Shown: positions 6,067 to 42,249 of the stretch, one piece after another
Position numbering within the stretch: the first letter of the stretch is position 1
Layout of the letters: the number at the start of each line of letters is the position of its first letter
NCBI RefSeq assembly: GCF_963921235.1
Contig: NC_086108.1
Coordinates: forward strand, 19,468,001-19,532,000
Reading direction: 5' to 3'
Length of the DNA: 64,000 nucleotides
From: Mobula hypostoma
Taxonomy: Eukaryota
Notes under the pieces: model-generated
Seen by the model: the letters and a program-made list of their open reading frames with translations, nothing else
Told to the model about the DNA's origin: nothing
The model's database searches: none
Translations under genes and position numbers: made by a program

Positions 6067-6149
6067 TCAGTTGAGGTAGATTGTGAGGTCAAAAGTCCAT
6101 TTTAGCATATAACTCAGTCGTCTTTTATACTGCTGTTATAAGCTTCCCT

Positions 6150-11200: not shown

Positions 11201-11470
11201 GATGTTGAAGAGGTTTTGGCATCCCATGACCAAGAATTGATAGATGAAGAGCAGATGCAATTGGAAGAAGAAAGGATAACAATCGAAATCAAATGCAGTA
11301 GCGAACTCGTCGAAAGTGAAGTCGTCCAGGAACTGAACGTGAAGCAACCACATGAAATTTTCGCTGCAATGATTGCAGAAAAGTACAACTTGAATTTTGA
11401 AAGGGGAGCAACACACATAAAAGTTGCTGGCGAACGCAGCAGGCCAGGCAGCATCTATAGGAAGAGGTGC

Positions 11471-11506
11471 AGTCGATGTTTCAGGCCGAGACCCTTCATC
11501 AGGACT
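11471..11506 (-). ncRNA. Minimal type I hammerhead ribozyme motif in PLE 3' end (CA instead of CG in helix III)
   Basis: RNA AGUC-CUGAUGA-AGG(GUCUCGG)CCU-GAAA-CA-UC-GACU. Confidence 0.65.
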
Positions 11507-13138
11507 AACTGAAGGAAGAGTGAGCAAGGGATTTGAAAGTTGGAGGGGGAGGGGAGATCCAAAATGATAGGAGAAGACAGGAGGGGGAGGGATGGAGCCA
11601 AGAGCTGGACAGGTGATAGGCAAAAGGGATACGAGAGGATCATGGGACAGGAGGTCCGGGAAGAAAGACAAGGTGGGGGGGGGTGGGCAAGGGGTTTATT
11701 CAGAGGGACAGAGGGAGAAAAAGGAGATTGAGAGAAAGAATGTGTGTATAAAAATAAGTAACAGATGGGGTACGAGGGGGAGGTGGGGCATTAGCTGAAG
11801 TTAGAGAAGTCGATGTTCATGCCATCAGGTTGAAGGCTACCCAGACAGAATATAAGGTGATGTTCCTGCAACCTGAGTGTGGCTTCATCTTTACAGTAGA
11901 GGAGGCCGTGGATAGACATGTCAGAATGGGAATGGGATGTGGAATTAAAATGTGTGGCCACTGGGAGATCCTGCTTTCTCTGGCGGACAGAACGTAGGTG
12001 TTCAGCAAAGCGGTCTCCCAGTCTGCGTCAGGTCTCGCCAATATATAAAAGGCCACATCGGGAGCACCGGATGCAGTATATCACCCCAGCCGACTCACAG
12101 GTGAAGTGTTGCCTCACCTGGAAGGACTGTTTGGGGCCCTGAACGGTGGTAAGGGAGGAAGTGTAAGGGCATGTGTAGCACTTGTTCCGCTTACACGGAT
12201 AAGTGCCAGGAGGGAGATCAGTGGGGAGGGATGGGGGGGACGAATGGACAAGGGAGTTGCGTAGGGAGAGATCCCTGCAGAATGCAGAGAGAGGGGGGGA
12301 GGGAAAGATGTGCTTAGTGGTGAGATTCCATTGGAAGTGGCGGAAGTTACGGAGAATAATATGTTGGACCCGGAGGCTGGTGGAGTGGTAGGTGAGGACC
12401 AGGGGAACCCTATTCCTAGTGGGGTGGCGGGAGGATGGAGTGAGAATAGATGTATGTGAAATGGGGGAGATGTGTTTAAGAGCAGAGTTGATAGTGGAGG
12501 AAGGGAAGCCCCTTTCTTTAAGAAAGGAAGACATCTCCCTCGTCCTAGAATGAAAAGCCTCATCCTGAGAGCAGATGCGGCGGAGACGGAGGAATTGCGA
12601 GAAGGGGATGGCGTTTTTGCAAGAGACAGGGTGAGAAGAGGAATAGTCCAGTTAGCTGTGAGAGTCAGTAGGGTTATAGTAGACATCAGTGGATAAGCTG
12701 TCTCCAGAGACAGAGACAGAGAAAGATCTAGAAAGGGGAGGGAGGTGTCGGAAATGGACCAGGTAAACTTGAGGGCAGGGTGAAAGTTGGAGGCAAAGTT
12801 AATAAAGTCAACGAGCTCTGCATGCGTGCAGGAAGCAGCACCAATGCAGTCGCCGATGTAGTGAAGGAAAAGTGGGGGACAGATACCAGAATAGACACGG
12901 AACATAGATTGTTCCACAAAGCCAACAAAAAGGCAGCATAGCTAGGACCCATACGGGTGCCCATAGCTGCACCTTTAGTTTGGAGGAAGTGGGAGGAGCC
13001 AAAGGAGAAATTATTAAGAGTAAGGACTAATTCCGCTAGACGGAGCAGAGTGGTGGTAGAGGGGAACTGATTAGATCTAGAATCCAAAAAGAAGCGTAGA
13101 GCTTTGAGACCTTCCTGATGGGGGATGGAAGTATATAG

Positions 13139-14024
13139 TGTGACGAGAATACACATAAATTAAGATGTTTGCTGGCCTGGGCTTGCACCAGTGGCATCAG
13201 CAGTGGTCTGCCACCTGTCCTCAGGGGAAGGAGAGATAAGGAACAATGAAGCAGCATCTGGAGATGTGTAATGAAGGGACGGGAGAGAGAGCTGTCTGGA
13301 GCGGCTCCCCCTTTGAACCCTGAACTATTTGAAGTGATGGACAGGCGATACCCCAGCAGGGGGATAAAAAGGGACAGGTTCACTAAGGCAGGACACACAC
13401 ACGACACCCGAGGTGACGAGACCCTGGAAGCGGTGCGCCTCTCACGAGTCGGTGGGAAGTACCGGACCTTAAACGCACAGGGTGGAAAGGTACGATCAGC
13501 GGGAACCCGGTGTGTGTCCACCCTCACTTGGGTGCCGGGTTCACTGCAGAAAATCGACCGCATCTGGAGGAGGGGTCACAGTCAGTGACCTCAGGTGACA
13601 TCACCAAGGACCCACCCGAAAGCTGCTTGTGAGCAATATCGCCGGTCTGTGAGTGGAAGCCGTTTCTGAATGCTCAGTCGTTCTCGTTCTCTCTCTCCCC
13701 CCCCCCACGTTGTCCATCGCCATGGCAACGATTACTGCGAACTGAACTATTAAATCGAACTGGACTTTTGTGTCACTTTGAAATTGGTCATTTACATACA
13801 TAAAGACATAAATTGGTCATAGACAACGATAGAGCTTGACTGATGCTGTTATCTTAATTCTGTGCACATGTGTGGTTATCATTGCTGAACTGTTGCATTT
13901 ATTATCCTTTCGATTACCGTGTTGCTTGTTTCTTTAATAAAACTTTCTTAGTTCTGGTAATCCAGACTCCAACTGAGTGATCCATTTCTGCTGGTTTGGC
14001 AACCCAGTTACGGGGTACGTAACA
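13139..14024 (+). repeat. 5' LTR (886 bp)
   Basis: tgtgacgagaatac...ggtacgtaaca, with an aataaa signal near 13936. Near-identical to 17315-18291. Confidence 0.93.
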
Positions 14025-14028
14025 TAAG

Positions 14029-14047
14029 TGGGGTTCTCGTCCGCAAT
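14029..14047 (+). promoter_or_regulatory. Primer-binding site, degenerate tRNA-Pro type
   Basis: tggggttctcgtccgcaat just after the 5' LTR, compared with canonical TGGGGGCTCGTCCGGGAT. Confidence 0.65.
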
Positions 14048-14123
14048 TTTGAACGCTAAATTTGGGATGGAGTAAATTGATTGGGTTAAAATTCCCGAAA
14101 GAAAGAAAAGACAAACAGTAGAA

Positions 14124-17100
14124 ATGGAGGCTGAGGAATTTATAAAGGCGCCGACCTTGGAGGCATCAGAGGATGCCAGGAAATCGGAATTGGTAGCTGT
14201 GGCCAAACGGTTGAATCTTGCTAAGGTGAAGTCGACAATGAGGAGAGAGGAGATACACAGAGCTATTGTAGAGCACTATGTATCTAAAGGTGTGTTTCCC
14301 CAAGGCGAGCTGGGGGTGGTGTCTATTGAAAAACCTGCTGGAGACGCAGTACAGGTGCAGTTTGAAAAACTGAGACTCGAGCACGAGTTCCGGGTACGGC
14401 AGTTGGAGCGAGAAGAGAAGGAGAGGGACAGACAGTTACAGCAAGAAGAGCAGGAGAGAGAGTTAGAAAGGCAAGAGAGAGAGAGAGAGAGAGAGAGACA
14501 GTTGGAGAGAGAAGAGAAAGAGAGAAAGAGACAGCTGGAGAGAGAAGAGAAAGAGAGAGAGAGAGAGACAGTTGGAGAGAGAAGAGAGAGAGAGAGAGAG
14601 ACAGTTGGAGAGAGAGGAGAAACAGAGGGAAAGGGAATTCGAATTGGAGAAGTTAAGGTTAAGGGCAGAGCAGGGACTCGTGCCGACCCAAGGTGGAGGG
14701 TTCCAGGCGACCCAGGAGGTTAGGCTGGTTCCCCATTTGACGATACCGACATGGATCGGTACTTCCTCCATTTCTAAAAAGTGGCCATAAGTCAGGACTG
14801 GCTGAGGGATAAGTGGGCTGTGTTACTTCAGAGTGTACTGAAAGGGAAAGCCCAAGAAGCTTACTCCGCTTTGTCCGCGGAAGATGCCCAGAGGTATGAG
14901 GTGGTGAAAGAGGCCATCCTCAGGATCTATGAGTTGGTCCCGGAGGCATACCGGCAGAGGTTCTGGAATGCGAGGAAGCAGTGGGACCGCACGTATTTAG
15001 AGTTTGCTCGTGAGATGCAGACATATTGTGAGCGTTGGTGCGCCTCGAAGGGGGTAGATGGGGATTATGACAGACTGCTACAGCTGATCCTGATTGAGCA
15101 GTTTAAAGGTTGTGTCCCTGAGGGTATGAGACCCTACCTCGATGAGAAAGAGGCAGCCACATTAGCCGCAACTGCTAAGTTAGCGGATGAGTATGCGTTG
15201 ACGCATAAAATGAAGTTTGCCCCGAGTAAATGCTACCAGAAGGGTAGTCAGGACGGCGGGGAGAGTCCGCCGGAAAAGTCAGAAAGTAAGCCGGGGACTA
15301 GTGAAAAGGATAAGGTAGACCGGGAGCAGTCTGGTAGGAAGTCTCCTGGGATCGTCTGTTATAATTGCGGGAAAGTCGGACACTTTGTGTCCAGGTGCTT
15401 TGTCCCAAGGAAGGAGACGGGGAAAGGAAAAACGGGGGTTCTGAATGGCTGTATCGAGCTGTTAAGCGAACCGCTAGGGAAGGACAGGTCTGCCAAAGTT
15501 CAGGAAGGGCGCGAGAGGTTTATCTCGGCCGGATTGGTGTCAGTGAAGGAGGGGTTTAAACCAGTTCCAGTGCGGATCTGGAGAGACACGGGAGCGTGTC
15601 AGTCACTAATACTGAAGAGTGTATTAGTGTTTAGCTCAGAGACCCAGACTGGGGAGGTAGAGGTCAAACGTGTTGGGGAAGGGACAGAGTCAGTCCCTTT
15701 GCACCAGATACACTTAAAGCAACCTGGTCTCTGGACTAGTCACGATCGGGCTGAGGTCCGAATTACCGATGAAAGGCGTGGAAGTCTTGCTCGGTAATGA
15801 CCTCGCCGGGGGAATCGTGTTCCCAATGGTGAGACTGACAGGTCAGCCTGCCAGCAGTGAGGCCCCGTCCACGGACTCACAGGTTCATCATGGGGCTGCG
15901 GTAGTGAATTTAGCTGTGGTGGTAAATTTAGCTGAAACGTTTCTGCCAGTCTTGTACGAGAAGGGGGTAGAAAGTGAAAAGAAGGAGTGTAGTGAAACAA
16001 GAGGTAGTGAGGGAGCTGGGACGGACGTAGCAGTAGCCAGGAGAGAATTTGTGCAGGCGCAGGAGCGAGACGAGGGGCTGATGGTTTTGGCAGAGACAGC
16101 TCTCTCTGACACAGCCTTGACAAGGGAACTAGTAGGCTATTGTGTGGAGGAGGAAGTGCTAAGGAAAAAAGGGAAATCAAGTACTGTGCCCGCAGATGAG
16201 GAATGGGGGGTGGTGCAAAAGAGTTATGGGGATGAGGTTTTTAACATGGCCCACAAGGTACCCCCCGGTGGACATTTTGCGGTGCTGGAGGAAACAGTTG
16301 GTGGAATCATGAAAGAAGTTTACCGGCTGCCCAGGGGGAAGAATGTTGTTGATCATGACCGACGCGAACTGAGACGGTCACCGGCTTTTGATATGCTAAC
16401 AAACCTAGTCGGTGTTAGCGTGGAAATCAATGAAGCTAGGGGTCCCCTGGTAAGAGAAAAAAACCATTTTGAAAAGATTAGTATGGGATCGATCAGATGC
16501 GAGAAGGCTATTGTTTTGGCCAGGTCTACTGATAAGGTCTCTCCCTTAATCCCCGAACAAAGCGGCTCTTTAGAAGTAATTAAACAACTCGCACCCGCGT
16601 GTTTGATTGTCCCGAGGCGATGCAAAGAACTGGGACGTTGGGTGATGTCTGTTACAATAGGTCAGCCTAGCAAACAACATCCATATATAATGAGTAATTC
16701 AGTGACTATAGGGCTGATGAACACAGAGGTGTGTATTCGCAATTTAATACGGCTGTCTGAAGCCAGCTTGATAGTGAACCTTGAAAAAAATGAATTCGAG
16801 GGTCACTTACCTGGGAATCGTGGTGACACAGGGGCAGCTGGCAGCGATGCAAGCTACAGTGCAGGCTATCGCTGAACTCCCAACCCCGACAGACAAGAGG
16901 GCCCTCAGAAGGCTCTTGGAGATGGTGGGGTACTGTAGGAAGTTTTGCAATAACTCTGCGGTCACTACCCCTCCCCCTCCTACTACGCCCTTGCGAGAGA
17001 AAACTGAGTCGGAATGGGACGACCCTTGTTATTGTGGTCCGGGACGAAACCAAATGAAAGGTTACATTGATCGCAATTCATCAGTGTTTTTGGCCACTAT

Positions 17101-17192
17101 GAAGTTTGCTGAGTTGGAGCCTGGTCTAAGGGATTATTAATAACACCTATAAAAGGAACAGAAAATGTGATGACTGTCTGTCAAGGTGTTGA
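14124..17192 (+). pseudogene. Disrupted gag-pol: coiled coil, SCAN-like capsid, CCHC knuckle, protease, integrase-zinc remnant, RT C-terminus, RNase H end
   Basis: WAVLLQSVLKGKAQEAY...YELVPEAYRQRF; CYNCGKVGHFVSRC; RDTGA...LLGNDL; MAHKVPPGGHF; VTYLGIVV...LRRLLEMVGYCRKF; IKGTENV..DCLSRC. Several frameshifts, including within a (GA)n-rich tract at about 14460-14630. Confidence 0.85.
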
Positions 17193-17301
17193 CAACTTCA
17201 AACTCACTGTGTTAGCCAAATAGCTGATAAAGATGTATATTTGTGTGTGTATCAACTAATGTATTCATGTTTGTAATTTTTACCTTCCGGTAAAAATCCT
17301 T

Positions 17302-17314
17302 AAAGGGGGGGAAG
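17302..17314 (+). promoter_or_regulatory. Polypurine tract
   Basis: aaagggggggaag immediately before the 3' LTR. Confidence 0.85.
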
Positions 17315-18291
17315 TGTGACGAGAATACACATAAATTAAGATGTTTGCTGGCCTGGGCTTGCACCAGTGGCATCAGCAGTGGTCTGCCACCTGTCCTCAG
17401 GGGAAGGAGAGATAAGGAACAATGAAGCAGCATCTGGAGATGTGTAATGAAGGGATGGGAGAGAGAGCTGTCTGGAGCAGCTCCCCCTTTGAACCCTGAA
17501 CTGTTTGAAATGATGGACAGGCGATCTGGAGATGTGTAATGAAGGGACGGGAGAGAGAGCTGTCTGGAGCGGCTCCCCCTTTGAACCCTGAACTGTTTGA
17601 AGTGATGGACAGGTGACACCCCAGCAGGGGGATAAAAAGGGACAGGTTCGCTAAGGCAGGACACACACACGACACCCGAGGTAACGAGACCCTGGAAGCG
17701 GTGCGCCTCTCACGAGTCGGTGGGAAGTACTGGACCTTAAACGCACAGGGTGGAAAGGTACGATCAGCAGGAACCCGGTGTGTATCCACCCTCGCCTGGG
17801 TGCCGGGTTCACTGCAGAGGATCGACCGCATCTGGAGGAGGGGTCACAGTCGGTGACCTCAGGTGACATCACAAAGGACCCACCCGAAAGCTGCTTGTGA
17901 GCAATATCGCAGGTCTGTGAGTGGAAGCCGTTCCAAATGATCAGTCGTTCTCGTTCTCTCTCTCCCTCCCCCCACGTTGTCCATCGCCATGGCAACGATT
18001 ACTGCGAACTGAACTATTAAATCGAACTGGACTTTTGTGTCACTTTGAAATTGGTCATTTACATACATAAAGACATAAATTGGTCATAGACAACGATAGA
18101 GCTTGATTGATGCTGTTATCTTAATTCTGTGCACATGTGTGTTTATCATTGCTGAACTGTTGCATTTATTATCCTTTCGATTACCGTGTTGCTTGTTTCT
18201 TTAATAAAACTTTCTTAGTTCTAGTAATCCAGACTCCAACTGAGTGATCCATTTCTGCTGGTTTGGCAACCCAGTTACGGGGTACGTAACA
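17315..18291 (+). repeat. 3' LTR (977 bp, includes a 92-bp tandem duplication)
   Basis: Same termini as the 5' LTR. Units at 17432-17523 and 17524-17615. Confidence 0.93.
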
Positions 18292-19662
18292 ATAGGGACT
18301 GGACATCCATGGTGAAAATAAAGCGGTGGGGGCCAGGGAACTTAAAATCATCGAAAAGTTTAAGAGCATGAGAAGTGTCACGAACATAGGTAGGAAGGGA
18401 TTGAACAAGGGGGGATAAAACCGTGTCGAGGTATGCAGAAACAAGTTCGGTGGGGCAGGAGCAAGCTGAGACAATAGGTCGGCCAGGACAGGCAGGTTTG
18501 TGGATCTTGGGTAGGAGGTAGAAACGGGAAGTGCGAGGTATGGGAACTATAAGGTTAGTAGCAGTGGATGGGAGATCCCCTGAGCGGATAAAGTCGGTGA
18601 TGGTGTGGGAGACAATGGCCTGGTGCTCCTTAGTGGGGTCACGATCGAGGGGTAAATAAGAGGAGGTATCCGCGAGTTGTCGCTGTGCCTCGGCAAGGTA
18701 GAGGTCAGTACGCTAGACTACAACAGTACCCCCCTTATCGGCGGGTTTAATAATAAGGTTAGGATTAGTGCGGAGGGAGTGGAGAGCAGAGCGTTCCGAA
18801 GGAGTGAGGTTGGAATGGGAACAAGGTGCGGTAAAGTCGAGACGGTTGATGTCCCGTCGGCAGTTAGCAATAAAGAGATCCAGAGCAGGCAGAAGACCAG
18901 AGCGGGGTGTCCATGAAGAAGAGGAGGGTTGAAGACGGGAGAAGGGGTCATCGGTGGGGGTGGAAGAGTCCTTGCCGAAGAAGTAGGCTTGGAGACGGAG
19001 ACGGCGGAAGAAAAGTTCCGCATCGTGGCGAACACGGAACTCGCTGAGGTGTGGGCGAAGGAGGACAAAGGTGAGGCCCTTACTGAGAACAGAGCGTTCT
19101 GCCTCCGACAGTTGAAGGTCGGAGGGGATGGTAAAGACCCGGCACGGATGAGAGCTGGGATCAGAGGGGGGAGGGGGGAGGCTGGGTGTGTCAATGGAGA
19201 GGGGAGGGTTGGGGTGAGAGGAAGATGGAGCCTCTGAGGGCCCAGGAGCTGACGGTGGGATCTGAGGGAGACGGGATTGCAGAGTATTGGTGGGGGAAGG
19301 GGAGACGGGAGTCACAACAGCAGCACATAAAGACCCGGCCTGGAGTTCAAGGCTGGAGTCGCAGTTGGTGGTTGCGCAATTCAAGGCTGGAGTCGCAGTT
19401 GCGTTGTTATTGCGTTTTGAAAGGGTACGTAGGTTTAGGGCATATTTGCAGGATGGTTTGAGTGCTTACAAAGAACTGTATGATAGAAAAATGCACGAGG
19501 CTAAGCAGTCTAGCATACTGTTGTTTTTCAAGGCTTCCACATCAGCCAAAGCAGACGACCGATCTCGACCTTCAACATCGAGGCAGGCAGATATAGAAGA
19601 AGATGACCTACCTGCCCTAATGGAAACAGACGACGATGAGATGACACCCCAGTGTCCCACCA

Positions 19663-19990
19663 CCCCAACCCCCGAGCTGCAGACCAATACATTGCCGCAG
19701 AGAATGCAGCGGTAGCTGGGACGCACCCAACACATCTTTAAGAAAAAAGCCGAAATAAACATGCTAATTAATTAGGTGCCGCCCGGCACGTAAATATCAG
19801 CCCAGATCAGAAGTGATTGCCGATTGCGTCACCTCTGATCTGGGCCAACATTTACATGCCAGGCAGCACCTAATTAGTTAGCTTGTTTATTTTGGATTTT
19901 TTTCTTAAAGATGTGCTGGGTGCATCCCGGCTACCACCGCATTCTCCGCGAATCGGTATCGGTGCGCTGCCTGGAGGTTGGGGACCACTG
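19663..19990. mobile_element. hAT-type foldback MITE (about 330-bp imperfect palindrome) inside Tigger copy 1
   Basis: Right end ggttggggaccactg is the reverse complement of CAGTGGTCCCCAACC. Arms are complementary around a loop at about 19816-19828. Confidence 0.75.
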
Positions 19991-21090
19991 CTCCACCCCA
20001 ACCTCCGACAACTCAGCCTAACACACCATCATCAGTGTGCTCAGCGCTGACTTCTTGATGCCAGTAAGTGATACTACACTGTACATACATTATTTCTACT
20101 TTATATAGGCTGTGTATTTATCATATCATTCCTGCTTTTACTATATGTTACTGTTATTTTAGGTTTTATGTGTTATATGGCATGATTTGGTAAGTTATTT
20201 TTTGGGTCTGCGAACGCTCACAAATTTTTCCCATATAAATAAATGGTAATTGCTTCTTCACTTTACAACATTCCGGCTTATGAACCATTTCATAGGAACG
20301 CTCTACCTTCGGATGGCGGGGGAAACAGAACAATTGAGAGGGGAGACAGTAAAATGACGCAGGAGGTAAAACTGGAAGTCACCAGCAAACATGAGCACTT
20401 CTCAGATGTGAATTGGGACAGCATGCAGAACAAAACCAGGAAGAGTCTTGGGCAGATTCTCAGGAGACATTGGGGTCAGCATGCATGAGCTGAAAGAGAA
20501 TTGATCCTTTGCTACAACAGTCAATAAAGAGAGTTAGACAAGTGCAGCTAGAGAAGGCAGAAGAATGGAATGGTAAATTGTGTAAAGTGGTGGTACAGGC
20601 AAGTTGAGAAACATAAAATGATCTTTCTCACTATCATATATTCAATCAGAGTCATTTTAGTACCATAGCAGAGTGAAACATCTGAGTAGAGTAAGAAAAC
20701 GAAAATGTAACTAATTGGTATGAATTGCAGAGGTGACACCTGATGAAAGGAAAGGAGAAGCTATAATTTACAAGGTCATAATACTCAAGGAATAACTTTG
20801 GAGGATAGGAATAACAATAGCAAATTTGAAGAAAAACAGGAGTGTCCTATAAGGCAGGACCTTTAACAATATCAGATAACTGGGGGGACACCGGAAGCTG
20901 GCTGGCCACTGATGTTAAGAGCACGGGAGACAAGGTGATGATTTCAGAAAGGCCATTGGGAGATGAGAGAAGGAAGCAGAAGCAAGAAAAATGCAAGCTT
21001 CATGACTGGGCAAGCCAACAAAGATTAACCCAGCAGAGATTATTGACAAGGGTGGAAAAATTTAGGAAGAAAGGCATTATTAGCTATTAA

Positions 21091-21753
21091 GATAGATAGA
21101 TAGATAGATAGATAGATATACTTTATTAATCCCGAGGAAAATTTGGTTTCGTTACAGCCGCACCAACCAAGAATAGAGCGTAAGTATAGCAATACAAAAA
21201 ACCCCAACAGTCAAACAACAAAATGCAAAACTATGCCAGATGGAAAATAAGTCCAGGACCAGTCTATTGGCTCAGGGTGTCTGACCCTCCACGGGAGGAG
21301 CTGCACGTTCGATGGCCACAGGCAGGAACGACCTCCCGTGCCGCCAAGTGTTGTATCACGGTGGAATGCGGCCGAAGTCCAACAGTAAAAAGGTCAATAT
21401 CCAGTTTGCAAACACGTTCCTCGATCGTAATATACCCCGGATTGCACCATCCGTTGTTAGCCAGATCAGTAAGCACCCCAATCCTTCACGCTCTCGGTGC
21501 ACTTCCGGTCAGCCAGAACGGTATTACCCACCGAACTCCTCTTCTCCAAAAGTCTCTGTTGTCTCGACCCGGTCCTCTTTCCTCGGCTTTGTGATCCCCC
21601 TCTACATCCTCTGTGTGTTTTCCTCCTGATTTCAGCAGGGGTGTCTGCCGCTCTGTTCGTTAAGCCGGCCTGAATTTGCTGGTCCGTGGAATACACAATG
21701 CGACCTTGCTTCTGTCCCGCGTGTCGGGATGTAACCATCTCCAGCGCTAAAGA
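21091..21753 (-). mobile_element. Short, multiply internally deleted Rex1/Babar derivative with (TATC)n tail
   Basis: ORF N-terminus (IVYSTDQ...EIRRKTHRGCRGG), an endonuclease piece (TVLADRKCTES...NNGWCNPGYITIEERVC..DIDLFTVGLRP) and the C-terminus/3' UTR (GGSDTLS, shared with 53100-53350) are joined within about 660 bp. Confidence 0.75.
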
Positions 21754-22589
21754 AAACCCAAACCCATAAGCAGGTTTATGGATGCAAGTGCGCTGGAAGC
21801 ACTTGTGATGACACTGGAAAATGTCATTCAGCTCAATTCAAGCCCATTCTAGCTCCAAGCAAAAGTGTCTCATTGTCTCTCTCCCCTTGTGTTGCTATAG
21901 TCCTACCATTTATTCTGCACTGCCTATTGCCTATTCCGTCATTCTTTTGTCACAAGCCCACTTGAGTGGCAATTCAAAGCAGCTAATTAACCCATCTGCA
22001 CCTCTTGGAGGAAGCTGGATTCAGAGGATACCGCAGTAACAGGGCAGAAAATCCAAATGTCACACAGAGTGCAGCCAAGATTGACACTGAAACCAGGTCA
22101 CTGGGGCTGAGGCAGCAACACTTTAACTGGTGCACTACCATACCAAAAGAGAGTGGTAGTAGCTGACAAAACAAGTCCACAGGATGAGGTGAAGTGGACA
22201 GGAAGGAAACATCATCTGCCGGTCCCTAACTTCATTTCCTCCCTTCATGTCACACTAACTTGCAGCAACTTCCCACAAGCATTATCTATTCACCCCAACA
22301 CGAAGTAATTTTAAAAATTATTCCACCAATTAAATTTCATCAAGGATTAAAATTCTGAATCACAAAGGAGGTGGCATGTTTCTCACAGAAAACACAAAAA
22401 AAAACAGGTCAGACACCAACGCAGTTTTGCTGTTGCTGACTGACTCGTGCAACTTGCCGATCAACTTCACCTGCTTTAATAATCTTTTTGTCATGAAAAT
22501 CAAAGCAAAACTAAAATGGAAAAAAATCCAAAGAATTAAATAATCACTCATTAAGTGGCACATCAGGATTTTCAGAAGGTCTTCAATGA

Positions 22590-23730: not shown

Positions 23731-23819
23731 GGGAGGGGGAGACTGGATTATGATTTAGAGGAGATTAACATCAATTACAGTAAAAAAAATAAGTAGAATG
23801 TAAAATGTCAGAAGAAAAG

Positions 23820-24410
23820 CTGGTCTTTGACTTCGGGGAGGGGGCACATGTGCATATCTACATCAGCATTGTGGAGGTAAGGAGGGATAAGACCTTCAAG
23901 TCCCTGGGAATGAACTTCATTAACAGCCTGACCTAGTCCCATGGTCAAGAATGTTCACCAATACCTATTACTTCTTCAGGAGGCCAAAGAAATTTGGAAT
24001 GTCCCCGTCAACCTTTACCAGTTTTCAGTCTATGCATCAGAGAAAGCATTTTACCTGCATGCATAATGACTTGGTACAGCAAGTATTCTGCATGCAACAC
24101 GGCAAGAAACAGCAGAGAGTTGAGGACACAGCTCAGCACAGCACCGAAACCAGCCTCCACTCTATGGACTCTGTCTGTACTTCTCACTGCCTCAGTAAAT
24201 GATCAAGGACCACACGCATCCTGGACATAGTCTTCTCTCCTCTTCCATCGGGCAAAACATAGAAAAGCCAGAGAGCCAGCAGGTTCAAGCACAGCTTCTA
24301 TCCAGCTGATCTCTATTAAATAGTTCCCTTCTACAATAAGATGAACTCTTAACCTCACAGTCTGTCTTACACTATTTTTTACCTGAATTTTTCTGTACCT
24401 GATAACACTA
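23820..24410 (+). mobile_element. Rex1/Babar-like 3' fragment (tail resumes at about 28172-28295)
   Basis: YYFFRRPKKFGMSP...CIRESILPACIMTWY remnants. Confidence 0.65.
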
Positions 24411-25572
24411 TACAGGTTTCCCCCGCTATCCAAAGGTAGAGCGTTCCTATGAAACGGTTCGTAAGCCGGAATGTCGTAAAATGAATAAGCAATTACCATT
24501 TATTAATATGGAAAAAATATTTGAGTGTTCTCAGACCCAAAAAAACCTACAAAATCATGCCAAATAACACATAAGACCTAAAATAACAGTAACATATAGT
24601 AAAAGCAGGAATGATATGATAAATACACAGTCTAAATAAAGTAGAAAACTTTTCTGCAGCACTATCTAGTGCAGCAAAAATCTTGCAGAAGCGCTCTCAG
24701 CAGAACCACTCTCTCCAGTAACCTTTAAGCTATGAAGCTGCCAAATCGTACCAGATAACACATAAAAATACACAGCCTATATAAAGTAGAAATAATGTGT
24801 GTACAGTGTAGTTTCACTTACCGGAATCTGGAAGACGCCAATAAATTGCAGTTTCGTCACAGTTAAACACTTGCTTATATGAATACGCACCTGACGCAAT
24901 CGACAATCGTCTCTGATCTGGGCCGACATTTACGTGCCAGGCGGCACCTAATTAATTAGCTTGTTTATTTCGGCTTTTTTCTTAAAAATGTGCTATGTGC
25001 CTTCCGACCACAGCTGCACCACTGCATTCTGCACGGCAATGTATTGGTCCGTGGCCGGGAGGTTGAGGACCACTACTTAAACTACGAAGCTGCCCTCGCC
25101 TCAGAAACCGATCAAACCATCCATGACTACCTTTAAATTCCACTTTCGCAACACTTTCATCACCATCATCCAGTGCTTTCTGTTTCAGCTTATTAAAAAG
25201 ATTGCCTGATTTCTCCTTAAGTATAAAAAAACTTAACGGAACACCATGCTTTATACACCTACCAATCCACTCAAGCAGTAGACTTTCCATTTTATCCGTT
25301 ATTGGATGCCGACTAAGACCACTTTGCTACGAGCAGAACCAAAAGTAACATTGGCAGCTTTCAAAATTCTTTCTCTCTGCGTATAAATAGTGCGAATGGT
25401 GGACGCAAGCAAGTTCAAAGCGCGGACGATGTCCTTACTTTGTTCACCAAGATCGAAACGCTTAACTATGTCTAGCTTTACGCTAAGTGTAACACCCTTA
25501 CGAGCTCTTTTAGGCTTTTCCGATACCTTAGAACTCATCTTGCTAATGGATGCACAAAATAAATCGAGATAA

Positions 25573-27997
25573 AGCAACATACATCAAAGTTGCTGGTGAA
25601 CGCAGCAGGCCAGGCAGCATCTATAGGAAGAGGCGCAGTCGACGTTTCAGGCCGAGACCCTTCGTCAGGACTAACTGAAGGAAGAGTGAGTAAGGGATTT
25701 GAAAGCTGGAGGGGGAGGGGGAGATGCAAAATGATAGGAGAAGACAGGAGGGGGAGGGATGGAGCCGAGAGCTGGACAGGTGATAGGCAGAAGGGGATAC
25801 GAGAGGATCATGGGACAGGAGGTCCGGGAAGAAAGACGGGGGGGGGGTGACCGAGAGGATGGGCAAGAGGTATATTCAGAGGGACATAGGGAGAAAAAGG
25901 AGAGTGAGAGAAAGAATGTGTGCATAAAAATGAGTAACAGCTGGGGTACGAGGGGGAGGTGGGGCCTAGCGGAAGTTAGAGAAGTCAATGTTCATGCCAT
26001 GCTACCCAGACGGAATATAAGGTGTTGTTCCTCCAACCTGAGTGTGGCTTCATCTTTACAGTAGAGGAGGCCGTGGATAGACATGTCAGAATGGGAATGG
26101 GATGTGGAATTAAAATGTGTGGCCACTGGGAGATCCTGCTTTCTCTGGCGGACAGAGCGTAGATGTTCAGCAAAGCGGTCTCCCAGTCTGCGTCGGGTCT
26201 CACCAATATATAAAAGGCCACATCGGGAGCACCGGACGCAGTATATCACCCCAGTCGACTCACAGGTGAAGTGATGCCTCACCTGGAAGGACTGTTTGGG
26301 GCCCTGAATGGTGGTAAGGGAGGAAGTGTAAGGGCATGTGTAGCACTTGTTCCGCTTACACGGATAAGTGCCAGCAGGGAGATCAGTGGGGAGGGATGGG
26401 GGGGACAAATGGACAAGGGAGTTGTGTAGGGAGCGATCCCTGCGGAATGCAGAGAGAGGGGGGGAGGGACAGATATGCTTAGTGGTGGGATCCCGTTGGA
26501 GGTGGCGGAAGTTACGGAGAATAATATGTTGGACCCGGAGGCTGGTGGGGTGGTAGGTGAGGACCAGGGGAACCCTATTCCTAGTGGGGTGGTGGGAGGA
26601 TGGAGTGAGAGCAGATGTACGTGAAATGGGGGAGATGCGTTTAAGAGCAGAGTTGATAGTGGAGGAAGGGAAGCCCCTTTCTTTAAAAAATGAAGACATC
26701 TCCCTCGTCCTAGAATGAAAAGCCTCATCCTGAGAGCAGATGCGGCGGAGACGGAGGAATTGCGAGAAGGGGATGGCGTTTTTGCAAGAGACAGGGTGAG
26801 AAGAGGAATAGTCCAGATAGTTGTGAGAGTCAGTAGGCTTATAGTAGACATCAGTGGATAAGCTGTCTCCAGAGACAGAAAGATCTAGAAAGGGGAGGGA
26901 GGTGTCAGAAATGGACCAGGTAAACTTGAGGGCAGGGTGAAAGTTGGAGGCAAAGTTAATAAAGTCAACGAGTTCTGCATGCGTGCAGGAAGCAGCGCCA
27001 ATGCAGTCGTCGATGTAGCGAAGGAAAAGTGGGGGACAGATACCAGAATAGGCACGGAACATAGATTGTTCCACAAACCCAACAAAAAGGCAGGCATAGC
27101 TAGGACCCATACGGGTGCCCATAGCTACACCTTTAGTTTGGAGGAAATGGGAGGAGCAAAAGGAGAAATTATTAAGAGTAAGGACTAATTCTGCTAGACG
27201 GAGCAGAGTGGTGGTAGAGGGGAACTGATTAGGTCTGGAATCCAAAAAGAAGCGTAGAGCTTTGAGACCTTCCTGATGGGGGATGGAAGTATATAGGGAC
27301 TGGACATCCAAGGTGAAAATAAAGTGGTGGGGGCCAGGGAACTTAAAATCATCGAAAAGTTTAAGAGCGTGAGAAGTGTCACGAACATAGGTCGGAAGGG
27401 ATTGAACAAAGGGGTGATAAAACAGTGTCGAGGTATGCAGAAACGAGTTCGGTGGGGCAGGAGCAAGCTGAGACAATAGGTCAGCCAGGACAGGCAGGTT
27501 TGTGGATCTTGGGTAGGAGGTAGAAATGGGAAGTGCGGGGTGTGGGAACTATAAGGTTGGTAGCAGTGGATGGGAGATCCCCTGAGCGGATAAAGTCGTT
27601 GATAGTGTGGGAGACAATGGCCTGGTGCTCCTTAGTGGGGTCACGATCGAGGGGTAAATAAGAGGAGGTATCCGCAAGTTGTCGCTGTGCCTCGGCAAGG
27701 TAGAGGTCAGTACGCCAGACTACAACAGCACCCCCCTTATCAGCGGGTTTAATAATAATGTTAGGATTAGTGCGGAGGGAGTGGAGAGCAGAGCGTTCCG
27801 AAGGAGTGAGGTTGGAATGGGGACAAGGTGCGGTGAAGTCGAGACGGTTGATGTCCCGTCGGCAGTTGGCAATAAAGAGATCCAGAGCAGGCAGAAGACC
27901 AGAGCGGGGTGTCCATGAAGAAGAGGAGGGATGAAGACGGGAGAAGGGGTCATCGGTGGGGGTGGAAGAGTCCTTGCCGAAGAAGTAGGCTCGGAGA
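25573..27997 (-). mobile_element. Penelope-like element (Neptune-type), 5'-truncated, RT plus GIY-YIG nearly intact
   Basis: 494-aa ORF at 25992-27476 with LDVQSLYTSIP, GVAMG, FLRYIDD and VIYCVRC..CGLLYIGET..RFAEH. Upstream ORF with KPADKG and LPKIHK. One premature TGA, one frameshift and a 10-bp deletion near 26000. Confidence 0.94.
25637..25672 (-). ncRNA. Minimal type I hammerhead ribozyme motif, full consensus
   Basis: RNA AGUC-CUGACGA-AGG(GUCUCGG)CCU-GAAA-CG-UC-GACU. Stem I AGUC/GACU, palindromic ACGU helix III, GUC cleavage triplet. Confidence 0.8.
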
Positions 27998-29609
27998 AAG
28001 CAATGGCAGCTAGAGTGCAGTTCCGAGGGAGGAGCCTGGCTGTTCGGGTGTGCGCTGCCTTTTTTCGTAACAGTGAAAACACCTTCTGTTAGCAAAAACA
28101 GGTAACTAATGTAGGTCTTTCGTAACAGTGAGGTGTTGTAAGGCGAACGTTCGGAAAACAGGGGCCACCTATTCTAAAATATTGTTTGGCCTGGTTCTAC
28201 CTCAAAGCACTGTACGAACAGTATAGTATTTCATCTGTACGAACAGTATACAAGCAAGCTTTTCATGGTATCTTGGCGCATTTGACAACAATAAATTCCA
28301 AGAGGTTCAAAAGGCTGAATGGCTTACAATTTCTGCATTTTTCGATTTTCTTCTAAATTGAAAACATGTTAATTTTGCCTTGTTCATCAGAAGCACCTTT
28401 GGGAACTTTTAATTCAAGCCTTTCCAACACTGAAAGAAAAATTAGAATTTTGCTCCCAATTTCACATCTGCCTTCCACCTTGGTAAATGTGTATAAATTC
28501 ATTTAGATCACATGAGGGCAGTCTCAAACCTCGAGTAAAGTGTCCAGAAGAAAGAATTTGACAAACAAGGCATGACCACAAGGTTCTCGAGCAGCTGGAA
28601 GCCATAAACAATATGCTGCTGAGAATCAATACTTTGAGGATTTAATGGCAGGTTGGGAGCAAGATTTGATGAACAGATTTTACAACAACAATGGATAAAA
28701 TAGGCTCTAAGCTCTGACTTACTTGATTTCAAGTGATTTTTCACTTGTCTGTTGTCGGAAAACACATGGAAAGAACCATAAAATCCTAAGTTTAATTTCC
28801 ATTCCCACTCTACCCTCTCTCCAGAGTTAACCAAACTGATCCTGGGAAGCAGTAAAGCTATCCAATAAACTTGGGTGTCTAATGAGAGAGCTTGGGAAAA
28901 AGAGGGAATAACTCAAAGATTTGAGCTCCTGATAACTGTACAATGACTCATCATGGAAGTACAGTACACACAAATGAACTGATAAACAACCCATCCAAAA
29001 ATCACCTCCCCAAAACCACCCTTTGGCAAATCACTGAATGCCAGCTAACACCAAGAAATCAAGACCAGGTTGAAACAGCACCTCTGGGAATGGACAAAGC
29101 TTAAAAATGAGTGCGCAAGAGAACCTCAGCATTTGTATGTGATTCAAGCTTCAATTTAATTTACGCAACATACTATGTACTCCAGGAGTTCCACTCCCAC
29201 TCCAAAATATTTCCAAGTACAGGACTTTGTACAAAATAAAAACTTCCATCTTAATGAGAAATAGTAAAGTAGACAAGTAAATATGACAACTGATTTTCAC
29301 ATTATATTAAAACAATATTTTGCAATTATTGGTAATATACTGAGGTGAAGATCTAAATGTGCAGATGTCAGGAACTTAAAGAAAGAGTAGGAAACACTGG
29401 AAAACTCAGGTCAGGCTGCATCTGCAGGAACAAAAACACAACATTACATTTTGGATCAAAGATCTTTTTGCAGAACTGGAAAGATGAAGATTACATTTGG
29501 AGTACTGAGAGCAGTGTTGAGCCCTGTATCTATAAGTTTGCTGGCACTGGAGAGGGTCCAGAGGTAGTTTACAAGAATGAACATGAGAATGAAAGCATTT
29601 GGTGACTCT

Positions 29610-29990
29610 GGGCCTGGTCTCGATAGAGTTTAGAAGAATGAGCTAAGATCCTACTGAATACTGCAAGGCCCAGATTGAGTGGAAATGCAGAAGATTTTTG
29701 CTATAGCAAGTGAGTCGAGGACCAGAGAGGGCAAAGCCTCAGAATAGAATGATGTCCCTTCAGAACAAAGATCAGGAAGAATTCCTGTAACGAGAGAATG
29801 GAATTTATGGTCACAGATGGCTGTGGAGGCCAAGTCATTGGGTATATTTAGAGTGGAGGCTGCTCGGTTCTTGATTAGTAATGATATCAAAGGTTTCAGA
29901 GTGAAGGCGGTGAGACAGATAATAAATTAGCCAAGATCGAATGGCAAAATTGTTGGGTGAATCACCTAATTCGGACCCTATTTATGATTT
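29610..29990 (+). mobile_element. CR1-like 3' fragment
   Basis: gagtttagaagaatgag...gtggaggccaagtcattgggtatattta matches the CR1 3' region. Confidence 0.65.
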
Positions 29991-30669
29991 CTTATCAGGC
30001 AAGTTTGCAGCTGCCATGGGGTTAAGCTCTAAATAAGTTTAGCTTGTCTGTGAATGGGAGCAGAAAGAGTGACAACATAGATACAGGAAAATAGGAGCTG
30101 CAAAGTGCAGATCAGGATGATAATACCTTGCAGACTGGGGAAGAAAACAACAAATAAACTGAGCCAATATCACACACAGGCAACTAATACCATCACATAT
30201 CAGGTTAACTGAAGTTAAAGTATTCAGTATTAAATCCTGAAGGCTGCAACTTAACCAGATGAATAAGTTGTTCTACCCCCTCAGGTTTACATTGGACCTC
30301 ATTGCAACAGTACAGGAAGCAAGGACCAATAGATCAGAATGGGAGTGGATGGGGAATTTAAGTGATAAGCAAAGGGAAGCTCAAGTTTACCCCAGCAGAC
30401 TGAATGGAGTTGTTCTGCAAAGCAATCACCCATTCTGCATTTGGCTTCGAACACAGAACAGTTCAGCACTGGACAAGTCAATCAGCCCACAATGTTGTAG
30501 CAATATTGATGCCAATATATATTGAATGTCCTCCTCTTATGGATAATATTTCCATGTACCTCTCATATCAGTCTCTGGATAAACACCTCAAACTCCACCA
30601 GACTGCCTCCTTCCCCTACTACCCCATTAACCCATTCCAGGGACCCGTGGAAGAAAACTGCCTCCAACA

Positions 30670-31505
30670 TAAACAAGAGAAAATCTGCAGATGCTGGAAA
30701 TCCAAGCACACATACAAATGCTGGAGGAACTCAGCAAACCAGGCAGCATCTATGGAAAAAGAGGACAGTCACCATTTCGGGCTTAAACTATTCGGCAGGA
30801 CTGGAGAAAAAAAGCTGAGGAGTAGATTTAAAAGGGCGGGTGTGGGGGGTGGGGGAAGAGGAGAGAGAAGCACTGGGTGATAGGTGAAACCTGAAGGGGG
30901 AGGGATAAAGAGCTGGGAGGTTTGATTGGTGAAAGAGATACAGGGCGAGAGAAAGGAGAGTCTGATAGGAGAGGACAGAAGGCCATGGAAGAAAGAAAAG
31001 GGGAGAGGAGGAGCACCAGAGGGAGGTGATGGGCCAGCAAGAAGATAGAGCGAGAGAGGGAAAGGAGTATAGGGAATGGTGTATAGGGAATGGTGAGGGA
31101 CGGGGGAGGGGAGCATTCCTGGAAGTTCAAGAACTCAATGTTCATGCCATCAAGTTGGAAGCTACCCAGACAGAAAATAAGGTGTTGTTCCTCCAACCCA
31201 AGTGTGGCCTCATCACGACAGTGGAGGAGGCCATGGATGGACATAACAGAATGGGAATGGGAAGTGGAATTAAAATGGGTTGCCACTGGGAGATCCTGCT
31301 TTTTCTGGCAGACGGAGCACAGGTGCTTGGTGAAGTGGTCTCATAATCTACATCGAATCTCACTGATATACAGGAGGCACTGAACATTGTATATGACCCC
31401 AAAAGACTCACAGGTGAAGTGTCGCCTCACCTGGAAGGACTGTTTCTGGTCTTGAATGGTAGTGAGGGAGGTGGTGTACGGACAGGTGTAGCACTTGTTC
31501 CGCTT
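30670..31505 (-). mobile_element. Older PLE 3' fragment (GIY-YIG region and 3' UTR)
   Basis: KRNKCYTC...FTCES...ATHFNSTSHSHS...LEEQHLIF. Degenerate hammerhead at about 30767-30802. Confidence 0.8.
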
Positions 31506-31514
31506 ATCGTGATC

Positions 31515-31965
31515 AGGCCACACTCAGGTTGGAGGAACAACACCTTGTATTCTCTCTGAGTAGCCTCCAACCTGATGGCGCGAACATCGATTTCTCAAAC
31601 TTCTGATAATGTCCCCCCTTCACCATTCTCCATCCCCTTTTCCCTCTCATACCTTGTATTTACCTGCCCATCACCTCCCTCTCCCCTTTTCTTTCTTCCA
31701 TGTCCTTCTGTCCTCTCCTATCAGACCATCCCTTCTCCAGCCCTGTATCTCTTTCACCAATCAACTTCCCAGCTCTTTACTTCATCCTTCCCCCTCCCAG
31801 TTTCATCTATCACCTGGTGTTTCCCTCTCCCCTCCCCAACCTTTTAAATCTACTCCTCAGTTTTTTTTTCCATCCCTGTCAAATGGTCTTGGCCCGAAAC
31901 ATCAACAGTACTCATTTCCATGGATGCTGCCTGACCTGCTGAGTTCCTCCAGTATTTTGTGCAAC
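31515..31965 (+). mobile_element. Older PLE 3' fragment, inverted relative to the adjacent copy
   Basis: ggccacactcaggttggaggaacaacacctt...gatgctgcctgacctgctgagttcctccag. Confidence 0.8.
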
Positions 31966-32098
31966 TTGCCTCTAATGTGGTCTTTAAACTTCCCCTCTCT
32001 AACCTTAACAGTGTGTCCTCTGGTGTTAGACATTTTTATACTGGAGAAAAGATTCTGACCACCTATTTTCTTTGCTTCTCATACTGTAAACAACTGTA

Positions 32099-32633
32099 CC
32101 CATTCTGACACGTCTATCCACGGCCTCCTCTACTGTAAAGATGAAGCCACACTCAGGTTGGAGGAACAACACCTTATATTCCGTCTGGGTAGCCTCCAAC
32201 CTGATGGCATGAACATCGACTTCTCTAACTTCCGCTAAGGCCCCACCTCCCCCTCGTACCCCATCTGTTACTTATTTTTATACACTCATTCTTTCTCTCA
32301 CTCTCCTTTTTCTCCCTCTGTCCCTCTGAATATACCCCTTTTCCATCCTCTGGGTCCACCCCCCCCCTTGTCTTTCTTTCCGGACCTCCTGTCCCATGAT
32401 CCTCTCATATCCCTTTTGCCTATCATCTGTCCAGCTCTTGGCTCCATTCCTCCCCCTCCTGTCTTCTCCTATCATTTTGGATCTCCCCCTCCCCCTCCAA
32501 CTTTCAAATCCTTTACTCACTCTTTCTTCAGTTAGTCCTGACGAAGGGTCTCGGCCTGAAACGTCGACTGCACCTCTTCCTAGAGATGCTGCCTGGCCTG
32601 CTGCGTTCACCAGCAACTTTTATGTGTGTTGCT
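32099..32633 (+). mobile_element. Young PLE 3' fragment
   Basis: Near-identical to the reverse complement of about 11407-11930 and 25573-26095. Confidence 0.9.
32534..32569 (+). ncRNA. Minimal type I hammerhead ribozyme motif, full consensus (antisense to IMP3)
   Basis: agtc-ctgacga-agggtctcggcct-gaaa-cg-tc-gact. Confidence 0.8.
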
Positions 32634-32854
32634 CATGATATGCACCAGCTGCTCATATGACCATCCACCACCTGCTCCCATGGCTTCACATGACTGCGGC
32701 CGGGGGCTAAACTGATGCTACACCTTGCCCAAGGTTGATCTACAGGCTAGTGGAGGGAAAGAGCATCTTACAACTCCTTCAGTAAAGATGTACATCCACC
32801 CCATCACCCAAGATAACAGTTCCGAGCTGTTTAAATTTTAAATAGAATAGTAGT

Positions 32855-33088
32855 CAGTCCAACACTTCACAGTACCAGCGACCCAGGTTCATTTCCCATC
32901 GCTGCCTGTAAGGAGTCTGTACGTTCTTCCCATGACCATGTGGGTTTCCTCCAGTTGCTCTGGCTTCCTCCCACAGTCCAAAGACGTACCAACTGGTAGC
33001 TTAATTAGTCATTGTAAATTGTCCTGTAATTTGGCTAAGGTTAAACCAGCGTTGCTAAGCGGTGTGCCTATTCTACACTGTATCTCAA
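32855..33088 (+). mobile_element. V-SINE-type SINE
   Basis: gtacgttcttcccatgaccatgtgggtttcctccagttgctctggcttcctcccacagtccaaagacgt core. Confidence 0.7.
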
Positions 33089-34690
33089 TAATTTGTTTTT
33101 AAATCTTCATTTCTGGGGTCTGGACATTGCCAACTTGATCAGTGTTTATTGCCCAACCCCAAATGCCCTTGAATAATCATCTTAAACAGCCCTGCTATAC
33201 TTGCCACCAGAGTATAATTGCCAAAGTTGTTCTGCAATTTAAACCCAGCAGCAATGACAGACTGGGAATTCAAATGCCACACTGACCATGCACAAAGCTT
33301 GATTGAGCTTTTAAATTAGTAACACAACTTCACAGTATCATACAGACTGTAATTGTTTCAATAAGTTTAAATAAAGAATGTGGTCAGTGAGCACTGGGGA
33401 CGAACAGAAGCAGCATCTTCCTCAGACTGGGGAATTCTGTCCAATGTCATGGTCAAAAACCAATGAAATGAAGTTTGAGTGGCTGGAGATGTTGGTATGC
33501 AAATTGTCAGTATGGTCCCTTTCCCAGCATCAAGGAATCAACTGCACATCCCTTCTGATGAGCTCCATGCACTCTCTGCGCATTTTGAGTAGAAGTGAGT
33601 GGAAGGTCACCACCTGCTCCAGCAGGTTCCAATGCAGCTGAACACAGTGTTACAGGAAACAGATCAAACTCCCAGAGAGCGAGCCCACAGAAACCATCCA
33701 GCTTGGATGCTGCATGTCCTCAGATCCTGTGCAGATTAAGTGGTAAGGGTATTTGCAGACATTTATAAACTCTCCCTACTTCCATCTGAGATTCTCACCT
33801 GCTTTAAGACAACCACTATAATGATGGTACTCAAGACAAGCCTTCATGACTGCCACCGAGGGGCTCAAAAATCCATCAGAAAATGCTTTGAGAGGCTCGT
33901 CATGGCATGCATCAACTCCAGCCTCCCAGAAAATGCTTGAACCACTACAATTTACATAATGCCAAACAAGGCACACAAAAGACTCCACTTAGCTCACCCT
34001 ACACTCATCTCTCGAGCATCTGGACAGTAAAGACACCCAATTTATGTGATTGCTTATTGACTACAGCTATGCCTTCAACACTACAATTTCAAGCAAATTC
34101 ATCCCCAAATATGAAGAACCAAGTCTCAACACACTCATTGGAACTGCATCCTTGACTTCCTGACCAACAGACTACTAACAGTAAGGACAGGCAGCAATGC
34201 TCCCATTGTGAATAACCTCAACAGTAGCACCCCACAAGGCTGTATCCTCAGCCCCCACTACTCTACTCCCTCTACACTCATGAAGGTTTGGCCAGATTCT
34301 GATCTGACTTCATTTGCAAATGATAATGGAAAGAATCTCAAACAACGATGAGTCAGAGTGCAGGAAAGAAACAGTCTAGGGACATGGCTTCACGACAATA
34401 ACCTTTGCCTCAACATCAGCAACTCAAGAGATAGTTATTAACTTCCTGTGGGGAGGGGGGTGGGGGGGGGAGGGTGTTGAGGGCATAAAGTTTGAGAGCT
34501 TCAAGTTCCTGGAAATGAACTTCACCAATAACCAGCACTGATCCAATCACATGGATACCGGGGTCAAGAGAGCTCAGCAGTGCCTCTACTTCCTCAGGAG
34601 GCTGAAGAAATTTAGCATATCCCATTTTACCTTCACCAACTGACTTGGTATGGCATCGGTTTTGTCCAAAACTAGAAGAAATCGCAAAGA

Positions 34691-35475
34691 CGAGGAAATC
34701 TGCAGATGCTGAAATTTCAAGCAACACACATAAAAGTTGCTGGTGAACACAGCAGGCTAGGCAGCATCTATTGGAAGAGGTACAGTTGACGTTTCAGGCC
34801 GAGCCCCTTCGTCAGGACTAACTGAAAGAAGAGCTGGTAAGAGATTTGTAAGTGGGAGGGGGAGGGGGGAGATCCAAAATGATAGGAGAAGACAGGAGGG
34901 GGAGGGATGGAGCTAAGAGCTGGACAGGTGATTGGCAAAGGGAATATGAGAGGATCATGGGACAGGATGCCTAGGGAGAAAGGAGGAGGGGGGGAAGCCC
35001 AGAGGATGGGCAAGGGGTATAGTGAGAGGGACAGAGGGAGCAAAAAAAGAGAGAGAAAAAGAATGTGTGTATATAAATAAATAACGGATGGGGTACGAGG
35101 GGGAGGTGGGGCATTAGTGGAAGTTAGAGAAGTCATGTTCATGCCATCAGGTTGGAGGCTACCCAGACGGAATACAAGGTGTTGTTCCTGCAACCTGAGT
35201 GTGGCTTCATCTTTACAGTAGAGGAGGCCGTGGATAGACATATCAGAATGGGAATGGTACGTGGAATTAAAATGTGCGGCCACCGGGAGATCCTGCTTTC
35301 TCTGGCGGACCGAGTGTAGGTGTTCAGCAAAACGATCTCCCAGTCTGCGTCGGGTCTCGCCAATATATAGAAGGCCGCATCAGGAGCACCAGACGCAGTA
35401 TATCACCCCAGTCGACTCACAGGTGAAGTGTCGCCTCACCTGGAAGGATTGTCTGGGGCCCTGAATGGTGGTGAG
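34691..35475 (-). mobile_element. Young PLE 3' fragment with 13-bp TSD (one mismatch)
   Basis: GIY-YIG coding remnant plus 3' UTR. gaaatcgcaaaga at 34678-34690 and gaaaccgcaaaga at 35476-35488. Confidence 0.88.
34784..34819 (-). ncRNA. Minimal hammerhead ribozyme motif (core intact, one stem I mismatch)
   Basis: RNA AGUC-CUGACGA-AGG(GGCUCGG)CCU-GAAA-CG-UC-AACU. Confidence 0.65.
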
Positions 35476-42155: not shown

Positions 42156-42249
42156 AATGCTTAAAAAATGTAGATGCATTATCAAAGTATACCCTGTACC
42201 ACTGCTAGCTTTAGTGTTGGCTCAATTCTTCACCGTTTATTGCACAGGA

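Follow-up and report, generated by a model that had tools for sequence, protein, structure and literature searches.

Hammerhead motifs of Penelope-like elements in a long IMP3 intron of Mobula hypostoma are likely silent passengers

Minimal hammerhead ribozymes are known from the pseudo-long terminal repeats (pLTRs) of Penelope-like elements (PLEs), among them the fish elements Xena, Poseidon and Neptune (Cervera and De la Pena, 2014, PMC4209133). These ribozymes have a type I topology with a short helix I, an extra base between positions 9 and 10.1, no loop 3 and palindromic positions 15.x-16.x, and they occur in thousands of mostly single, truncated element copies and in inverted pairs; as monomers they were described as not cleaving, and as dimers as cleaving at a low level. 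A review calls PLE hammerheads very slow even as dimers (PMC6765202), and the hammerhead of an Anolis PLE was reported to cleave only with the element protein, insertion being independent of cleavage (Frangieh et al., 2024, PMC11167929). The topology, architecture and mode of dispersal given first are shared by the motifs studied here, four of which lie in one intron of the gene IMP3 in a stretch of the Mobula hypostoma genome (assembly GCF_963921235.1, contig NC_086108.1, positions 19,468,001-19,532,000 of the forward strand; the whole 64,000 nt are called the window). These four motifs are the 3' ends of four independent, truncated PLE insertions, and we consider it very probable that, as silent passengers, they are spliced out with the IMP3 intron; the motif is real, of a known kind and in an ordinary setting, and an effect on the host gene is unlikely.

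IMP3, a U3 snoRNP protein, was not found by a Pfam PF00163 search of the genome or by a first set of short motifs, and its exons were located by a splice-site scan with a second motif set. Two coding exons match the human protein, and the boundaries of the upstream one (60615/60722) were set by a contig of run X5, which the tool guessed to be RNA. This contig is identical to the window exon and runs from 60615 directly into the exon at 2405-2331, a correctly spliced junction, with the donor GTGAGT at 60614 and the acceptor CAG at 2408-2406. Because the X5 contig joins both exons directly, the intron is one piece of 58,209 nt with three of the motifs on the transcribed strand, so that the arrangement originally proposed from the sequence, three sense copies and one antisense copy in one IMP3 intron, stands. 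Contigs from three of the four runs compared gave no match to the exon; the six runs guessed to be RNA were available as contigs, which cannot tell ends, strand or level. The gene parts and the motifs, all four of the latter lying where the original prediction had placed them, are:

2331..2405, minus strand: IMP3 coding exon downstream of the intron (human IMP3 residues 84-107, E 1.6e-04)
2406..60614, minus strand: IMP3 intron, single piece, 58,209 nt, containing every motif copy
60615..60722, minus strand: IMP3 coding exon upstream of the intron (phmmer, human IMP3 residues 47-82, E 2e-07)
11471..11506, minus strand: minimal hammerhead, sense, damaged (helix III ACAU, N7 = U)
25637..25672, minus strand: minimal hammerhead, sense, intact; predicted cut between 25641 and 25640
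32534..32569, plus strand: minimal hammerhead, antisense to IMP3, intact as DNA, its complement being in the pre-mRNA
34784..34819, minus strand: minimal hammerhead, sense, damaged (A at 1.1 against C at 2.1; G.G in helix II)
45506..45542, plus strand: fifth motif, old and degenerate (10 mismatches), antisense

The motif is laid out as helix I AGUC, CUGAnGA, an extra A, a 4-bp helix II with a CUCG loop, GAAA, CG, UC and GACU. It had been claimed that every copy reads GAAA-CG-UC and is closed by AGUC:GACU, which holds for 25637 and 32534 and fails for the other two: copy 11471 reads GAAA-CA-UC, CA replacing CG with loss of the ACGU palindrome, and copy 34784 ends in AACU, which leaves a C.A mismatch at pair 2.1:1.1. 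Among the four, only 25637 (sense) and 32534 (antisense) pass the structural test, and both changes in 11471 look like CpG decay. The assignment to the minimal type I hammerheads of PLEs with a palindromic helix III is well founded: the CUGAnGA and GAAA boxes with a UH triplet are present in all four copies, positions 15.2-16.2 read ACGU without loop 3 in 25637, 32534 and 34784 (broken in 11471), helix I has 4-5 bp in three copies (the first pair of 34784 is broken), and the window motifs also stand 3' of the open reading frame (ORF). In 146 sampled copies the core positions are 85-99% conserved and the extra base between 9 and 10.1 is A in 141. Compared with the published pLTR hammerheads, helix II is only 4 bp long, and a G10.1.U11.1 wobble (30,142 exact copies) dominates over G-C (4,524); position 11.1 is U in all four window copies, in place of the conserved G10.1-C11.1 pair that is given as a typical feature of PLE minimal hammerheads outside their descriptor (PMC4209133). 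The covariance-model search suggested with the original prediction, run with the 4227 families of Rfam, gave no hammerhead match at E values up to 10.

An exact 37-mer of the motif occurs 30,142 times in the 3.476 Gb genome and its reversed pattern not once, so the motif is not random sequence, and copies are more numerous than in coelacanth and Xenopus, for which 4,000-9,000 are reported (PMC4209133). The C11.1 variant counted above makes up 64 of the 146 sampled copies. Among exact copies the wobble outnumbers the canonical pair about 7 to 1, and from these sequences the most successful subfamily may be the one that carries the weaker ribozyme. The loose CUGAnGA/GAAA pattern is at chance level in the window (14 against 13.1 expected), the intron holds 5 motif-like copies with no more than 10 mismatches where 4.8 would be expected and 2 exact ones where 0.5 would be (P 0.09), and the clustering of motifs in the intron is close to that expected of a dispersed repeat.

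Each window motif is followed by a 60- or 100-nt element tail, and the four carriers are 88-94% alike and are independent insertions with unrelated flanks, 2-14 kb apart:

11407..19380, minus strand: PLE copy 1, 5'-truncated, in two pieces (11407-13138 and 18292-19380; self-BLAST), short tail
13139..18291, plus strand: Gypsy-like long terminal repeat (LTR) retrotransposon inside PLE copy 1 (SCAN and zinc-knuckle domains)
25573..27997, minus strand: PLE copy 2, 5'-truncated, with reverse transcriptase (RT), CX4CX2C linker and GIY-YIG, broken frame, short tail
32099..32634, plus strand: PLE copy 3, 536-nt 3' end, inverted with respect to the other three and 89-93% identical to them
34719..35476, minus strand: PLE copy 4, 758-nt 3' end, long tail, 88-89% identical to copies 1-3

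The 5' end of copy 1 was placed from genome matches that begin at query base 86, and its flanks resemble a Tigger-type transposon. Copy 2 encodes RVT_1 (E 4.9e-05) and GIY-YIG (E 4e-04) in one 518-aa frame, both under the Pfam curated cut-offs, and is inserted in a Tigger/pogo transposon, as CENP-B_N and HTH_Tnp_Tc5 matches in its flank indicate (Pfam). The linker between its RT and endonuclease, CKRNKCYTC, fits CX2-5CxxC and points to an endonuclease-positive PLE of the Neptune clade, an assignment drawn from the linker rather than from an RT tree. With that clade (Craig et al., 2021, PMC8557442) the carrier shares the RT, the linker, a C-terminal GIY-YIG, a pLTR with a hammerhead, an optional tail of 30-40 bp and inverted 5'-truncated arms. 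At 3 of 25 loci the element is arranged in full, its motif lying about 140 nt ahead of the first ATG of the long frame; long open frames are present at L165 and L170, the latter with a partial tandem, and inverted truncated arms are found among the sampled loci. Tail classes at 30 genomic loci, counted by eye, were 14 short (about 60 nt past the motif), 14 long (about 100 nt) and 2 shorter. The Poseidon element PAc of Anolis likewise has two 3' end points, about 36 nt apart past the hammerhead, and a template that was apparently uncleaved, the two-ended tail being ascribed to internal RT starts; PAc belongs to another clade, and its ORF starts inside the hammerhead, unlike the frame here, whose first ATG lies about 140 nt past the cut (PMC11167929).

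What the motif might do in the IMP3 transcript was approached by folding with ViennaRNA, in which the contacts of the hammerhead core go unscored and which was run without a known active dimer as control. In isolation the motif is predicted to fold back on itself, with G5-A6-C7-G8 bound to the substrate strand in a hairpin (P 0.96-0.98); the monomer is predicted to lack helix III, and an active monomer fold is not predicted in the pre-mRNA context. Upstream of the motif lies a further stretch that enters the predicted fold:

25677..25688, minus strand: pyrimidine-rich stretch upstream of the motif, predicted (ViennaRNA) to pair with the CUGAnGA core and the 5' strand of helix II

With at least 20 nt of upstream context the probability of helix I drops to 0.02 or less. 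In host read-through RNA the core would therefore be expected, on these predictions, to be sequestered by the pyrimidine stretch and also locked by the pairing of G5-A6-C7-G8 with its own substrate strand, and from such folds we infer inactivity in the IMP3 pre-mRNA. Type I dimers combine one copy's enzyme half with the substrate half contributed by its partner. The active fold of the 34784+25637 dimer lies 16.0 kcal/mol above two monomers, and that of a perfect pair 12.2 kcal/mol above. The antisense copy is predicted to be able to form a duplex of about 530 nt with any of the sense copies, at about -950 to -1030 kcal/mol, in keeping with the earlier suggestion that it may sequester them. It is transcribed about 0.6 min after 34784 and ahead of 25637; its duplex of about 530 bp would thus form first with the 34784 copy, 2.1 kb upstream, and may remove the enzyme half that would be needed from that copy.

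If cleavage of introns by these motifs were harmful, fewer sense than antisense copies might be found in other genes. The sample of other genes, 20 intervals with 1.747 Mb in all, came from 19 putative spectrin-repeat and myosin genes whose orientation was read from exon matches, and motifs were counted by Hamming distance, which misses copies with indels or spanning the ends of unjoined stretches. The sample holds 143 motif-like copies, 86 sense and 57 antisense; the intact ones divide into 22 sense and 15 antisense (95% confidence interval of the sense share 0.42-0.75), young ones 19:17 and exact ones 10:6, the 16 exact copies comparing with 15.1 predicted by the mean density in the genome. 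The sample shows no depletion of sense copies, and without the two least certain intervals (SP_C18a and SP_C22b) the ratio is 75:51 overall and 19:14 among intact copies. One gene (15:3) accounts for most of the mild excess of sense copies that is seen when all copies are counted (P 0.02). In 21 tiles of 58 kb, 12 have at least three sense motifs, 9 at least one intact sense motif and 3 at least two, IMP3 having one. Lack of sense depletion shows an absence of harm, not an absence of cutting. Splicing is reported to proceed in introns that a hammerhead or other slow ribozyme has cut and to be blocked by fast ribozymes (PMC2995048, PMC10919898), and this tolerance makes the orientation test weaker as proof of no cleavage; rare, slow cleavage, if there is any, would probably be tolerated in the same way, thanks to co-transcriptional splicing.

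Several points weigh against silence of the motifs in the IMP3 intron. Four young copies (at most 2 mismatches) lie there against 1.2 expected (Poisson P 0.03), four such copies are seen in 1 of the 21 equal-sized tiles of other genes, and for three young sense copies P is about 0.02; the intron is rich in young copies, as are about 3% of such stretches, and unremarkable for intact ones. The orientation test counts 37 intact copies in genes that were picked by domain and whose bodies were inferred from exon matches, and exon tethering would mask cleavage in it. The upstream lock was matched by 5.5% of 200 shuffled flanks and goes marginally beyond composition. The ViennaRNA energies probably overstate inactivity, their direction being more trustworthy than their size, and the 34784+25637 heterodimer leaves one well-paired site, 25641/25640. 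The title of one PLE paper reportedly states that these hammerheads cleave as dimers.

We propose that the motif has its function in the RNA of the element itself, where it would act at or close to the 5' end, probably assisted by the element protein. Among 69 tail-selected copies, many of which are arms of fold-back pairs and hence non-independent, 32 have their 5' ends 22-44 nt before the cut, none at 74-44 nt and 3 within 2 nt. When the pattern was extended to -28, -33, -36 and -39, genome counts were 39,517, 30,142, 27,475 and 26,076, a drop per base of 5.3%, 3.0% and 1.7% over the successive extensions, the first of which other subfamilies may inflate. These sequences fit an element RNA that starts near -36 at TCAGTT, which we take to be an initiator-like motif, and is copied uncut; such an RNA would, by the same folding, lack the upstream lock found in read-through RNA. 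The Penelope pLTR has been described as holding an internal promoter with an initiator (PMC2377424). The motif is abundant in contigs of four runs guessed to be RNA, and contigs matching 25350-26150 are family-wide and so uninformative on copy 25637. Mutation of the core was 0.7% against 5.8% in the flank in 27 motif-selected copies, a comparison confounded by motif selection and subfamily differences, and its repeat with tail-selected copies is confounded by truncation. The stretch 25677-25688 and its equivalents also look like a splice acceptor (polypyrimidine and CAG). An intron ending at this acceptor-like CAG just before the motif was considered and rejected: the truncated copies share no upstream exon, and the contigs show no GT..AG joint.

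Other readings of the locus would give the motifs a part to play. Occasional cleavage in trans, by the element protein or with another transcribed copy, and harmless in that a cut intron still splices, is unlikely. The protein-assisted Anolis hammerhead (PMC11167929), exon tethering (PMC2995048) and the abundance of the motif in the four RNA-guessed runs, by which partners would be plentiful, speak for it; yet no RNA-seq reads were reported to end at the cut site in Anolis (PMC11167929), only 3 of the 69 sampled copies start within 2 nt of the cut, and the core is predicted to be locked. An effect of the locus by way of its long inverted-repeat duplex, through A-to-I editing or altered splicing and not through catalysis, we regard as very unlikely: the pair is 89% alike over 536 nt, 2.1 kb apart and predicted at about -950 kcal/mol, but inverted pairs are common in this PLE family and this one lies more than 25 kb from either exon.

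The original prediction had gone further, to an effect on IMP3 itself, in which the enzyme half of 34784 and the substrate half of 25637 form a dimer in cis, cleaving the intron as it is transcribed and so reducing or timing the output of IMP3. The predicted cut position is borne out as the site left well formed and fully paired in that heterodimer, at 3.8 kb/min (rate from PMC2995048) the polymerase would need about 6 min more to reach the 3' splice site, young copies are somewhat dense in the intron, and an intronic ribozyme is reported to modulate Cpeb3 (PMC10919898). Nevertheless the proposal does not hold up well and appears highly improbable. Copy 34784 is damaged, with a weakened helix II, and the antisense copy, transcribed some 0.6 min after it, is predicted to capture it; a rough ideal-chain estimate puts the effective concentration at just 0.1-0.4 uM for a spacing of 9.1 kb; the active fold is some 16 kcal/mol up; the insertions are young and unrelated to one another, and two of the three sense copies have decayed; and sense copies are not depleted in other genes. 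Published PLE hammerheads are also slow or protein-dependent, as cited at the outset, and better sense pairs exist elsewhere, four fully intact ones in other genes being spaced 4.3-6.8 kb, closer than the IMP3 pair. We would give hardly any credence to the wider idea that intact sense PLE hammerheads, of which the sampled gene bodies hold about 13 per Mb, are latent intron scissors across the genome, switchable by the element protein, which with the 34784 enzyme would cut at 25641/25640 and throttle ribosome biogenesis when the element is active.

Amniote intronic hammerheads are said to be conserved, single-locus and active as monomers, unlike the motifs here. The Cpeb3 ribozyme (PMC10919898), like the sense copies in IMP3, is encoded in the sense orientation within a long intron of a protein-coding gene; it is described as conserved, single-locus and monomer-active with a half-life of 2-3 min, whereas the IMP3 motifs are young repeat ends that need a partner. 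That the copies are young repeat ends, and that two of three sense ones have decayed, argues against a domestication of the Cpeb3 type. Non-LTR retrozymes (bioRxiv 10.64898/2026.07.22.740005) also carry type I hammerheads of PLE origin in vertebrates; they are tandem units reported as under-represented in Xenopus introns, in contrast to the dispersed copies here, which show no intronic depletion in our sample. A literature search by titles and abstract openings returned no case of a transposon ribozyme acting on host pre-mRNAs. As found, the locus matters little, being one more intron with remains of a known retroelement, and the by-product is a sample in which intact PLE hammerheads are tolerated on the intron sense strand, which fits their being off in read-through RNA. 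If cleavage were true, a transposon ribozyme would act on host pre-mRNAs at thousands of loci.

For cis dimers, a spectrin-like gene (G000:C82:9712001-9822000, L055-L065) with three exact sense motifs within 9 kb is a better locus to test than IMP3. The gene with the 15 sense and 3 antisense copies is beta-spectrin-like (G000:C40:8555001-8695000, L075-L088), and its ratio may be chance. Both long PLE copies (11407/19380 and 25573/27997) appear to sit inside Tigger/pogo transposons, and Tigger copies in the intron lie at 19663-20326, 24414-25576 and 35823-37179. The Gypsy-like element at 13139-18291 has LTRs about 97% alike, TG..CA ends and a 4-bp CTAT duplication; its gag has SCAN and zinc-knuckle domains, and about 90 nt are duplicated within one LTR. 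Older PLE remnants, head-to-head, 66-78% identical to the young copies and without an intact motif, occupy 30671-31946. At 364-422 of the window there is a tRNA-like head, probably of a short interspersed element (Rfam tRNA, under the gathering score).

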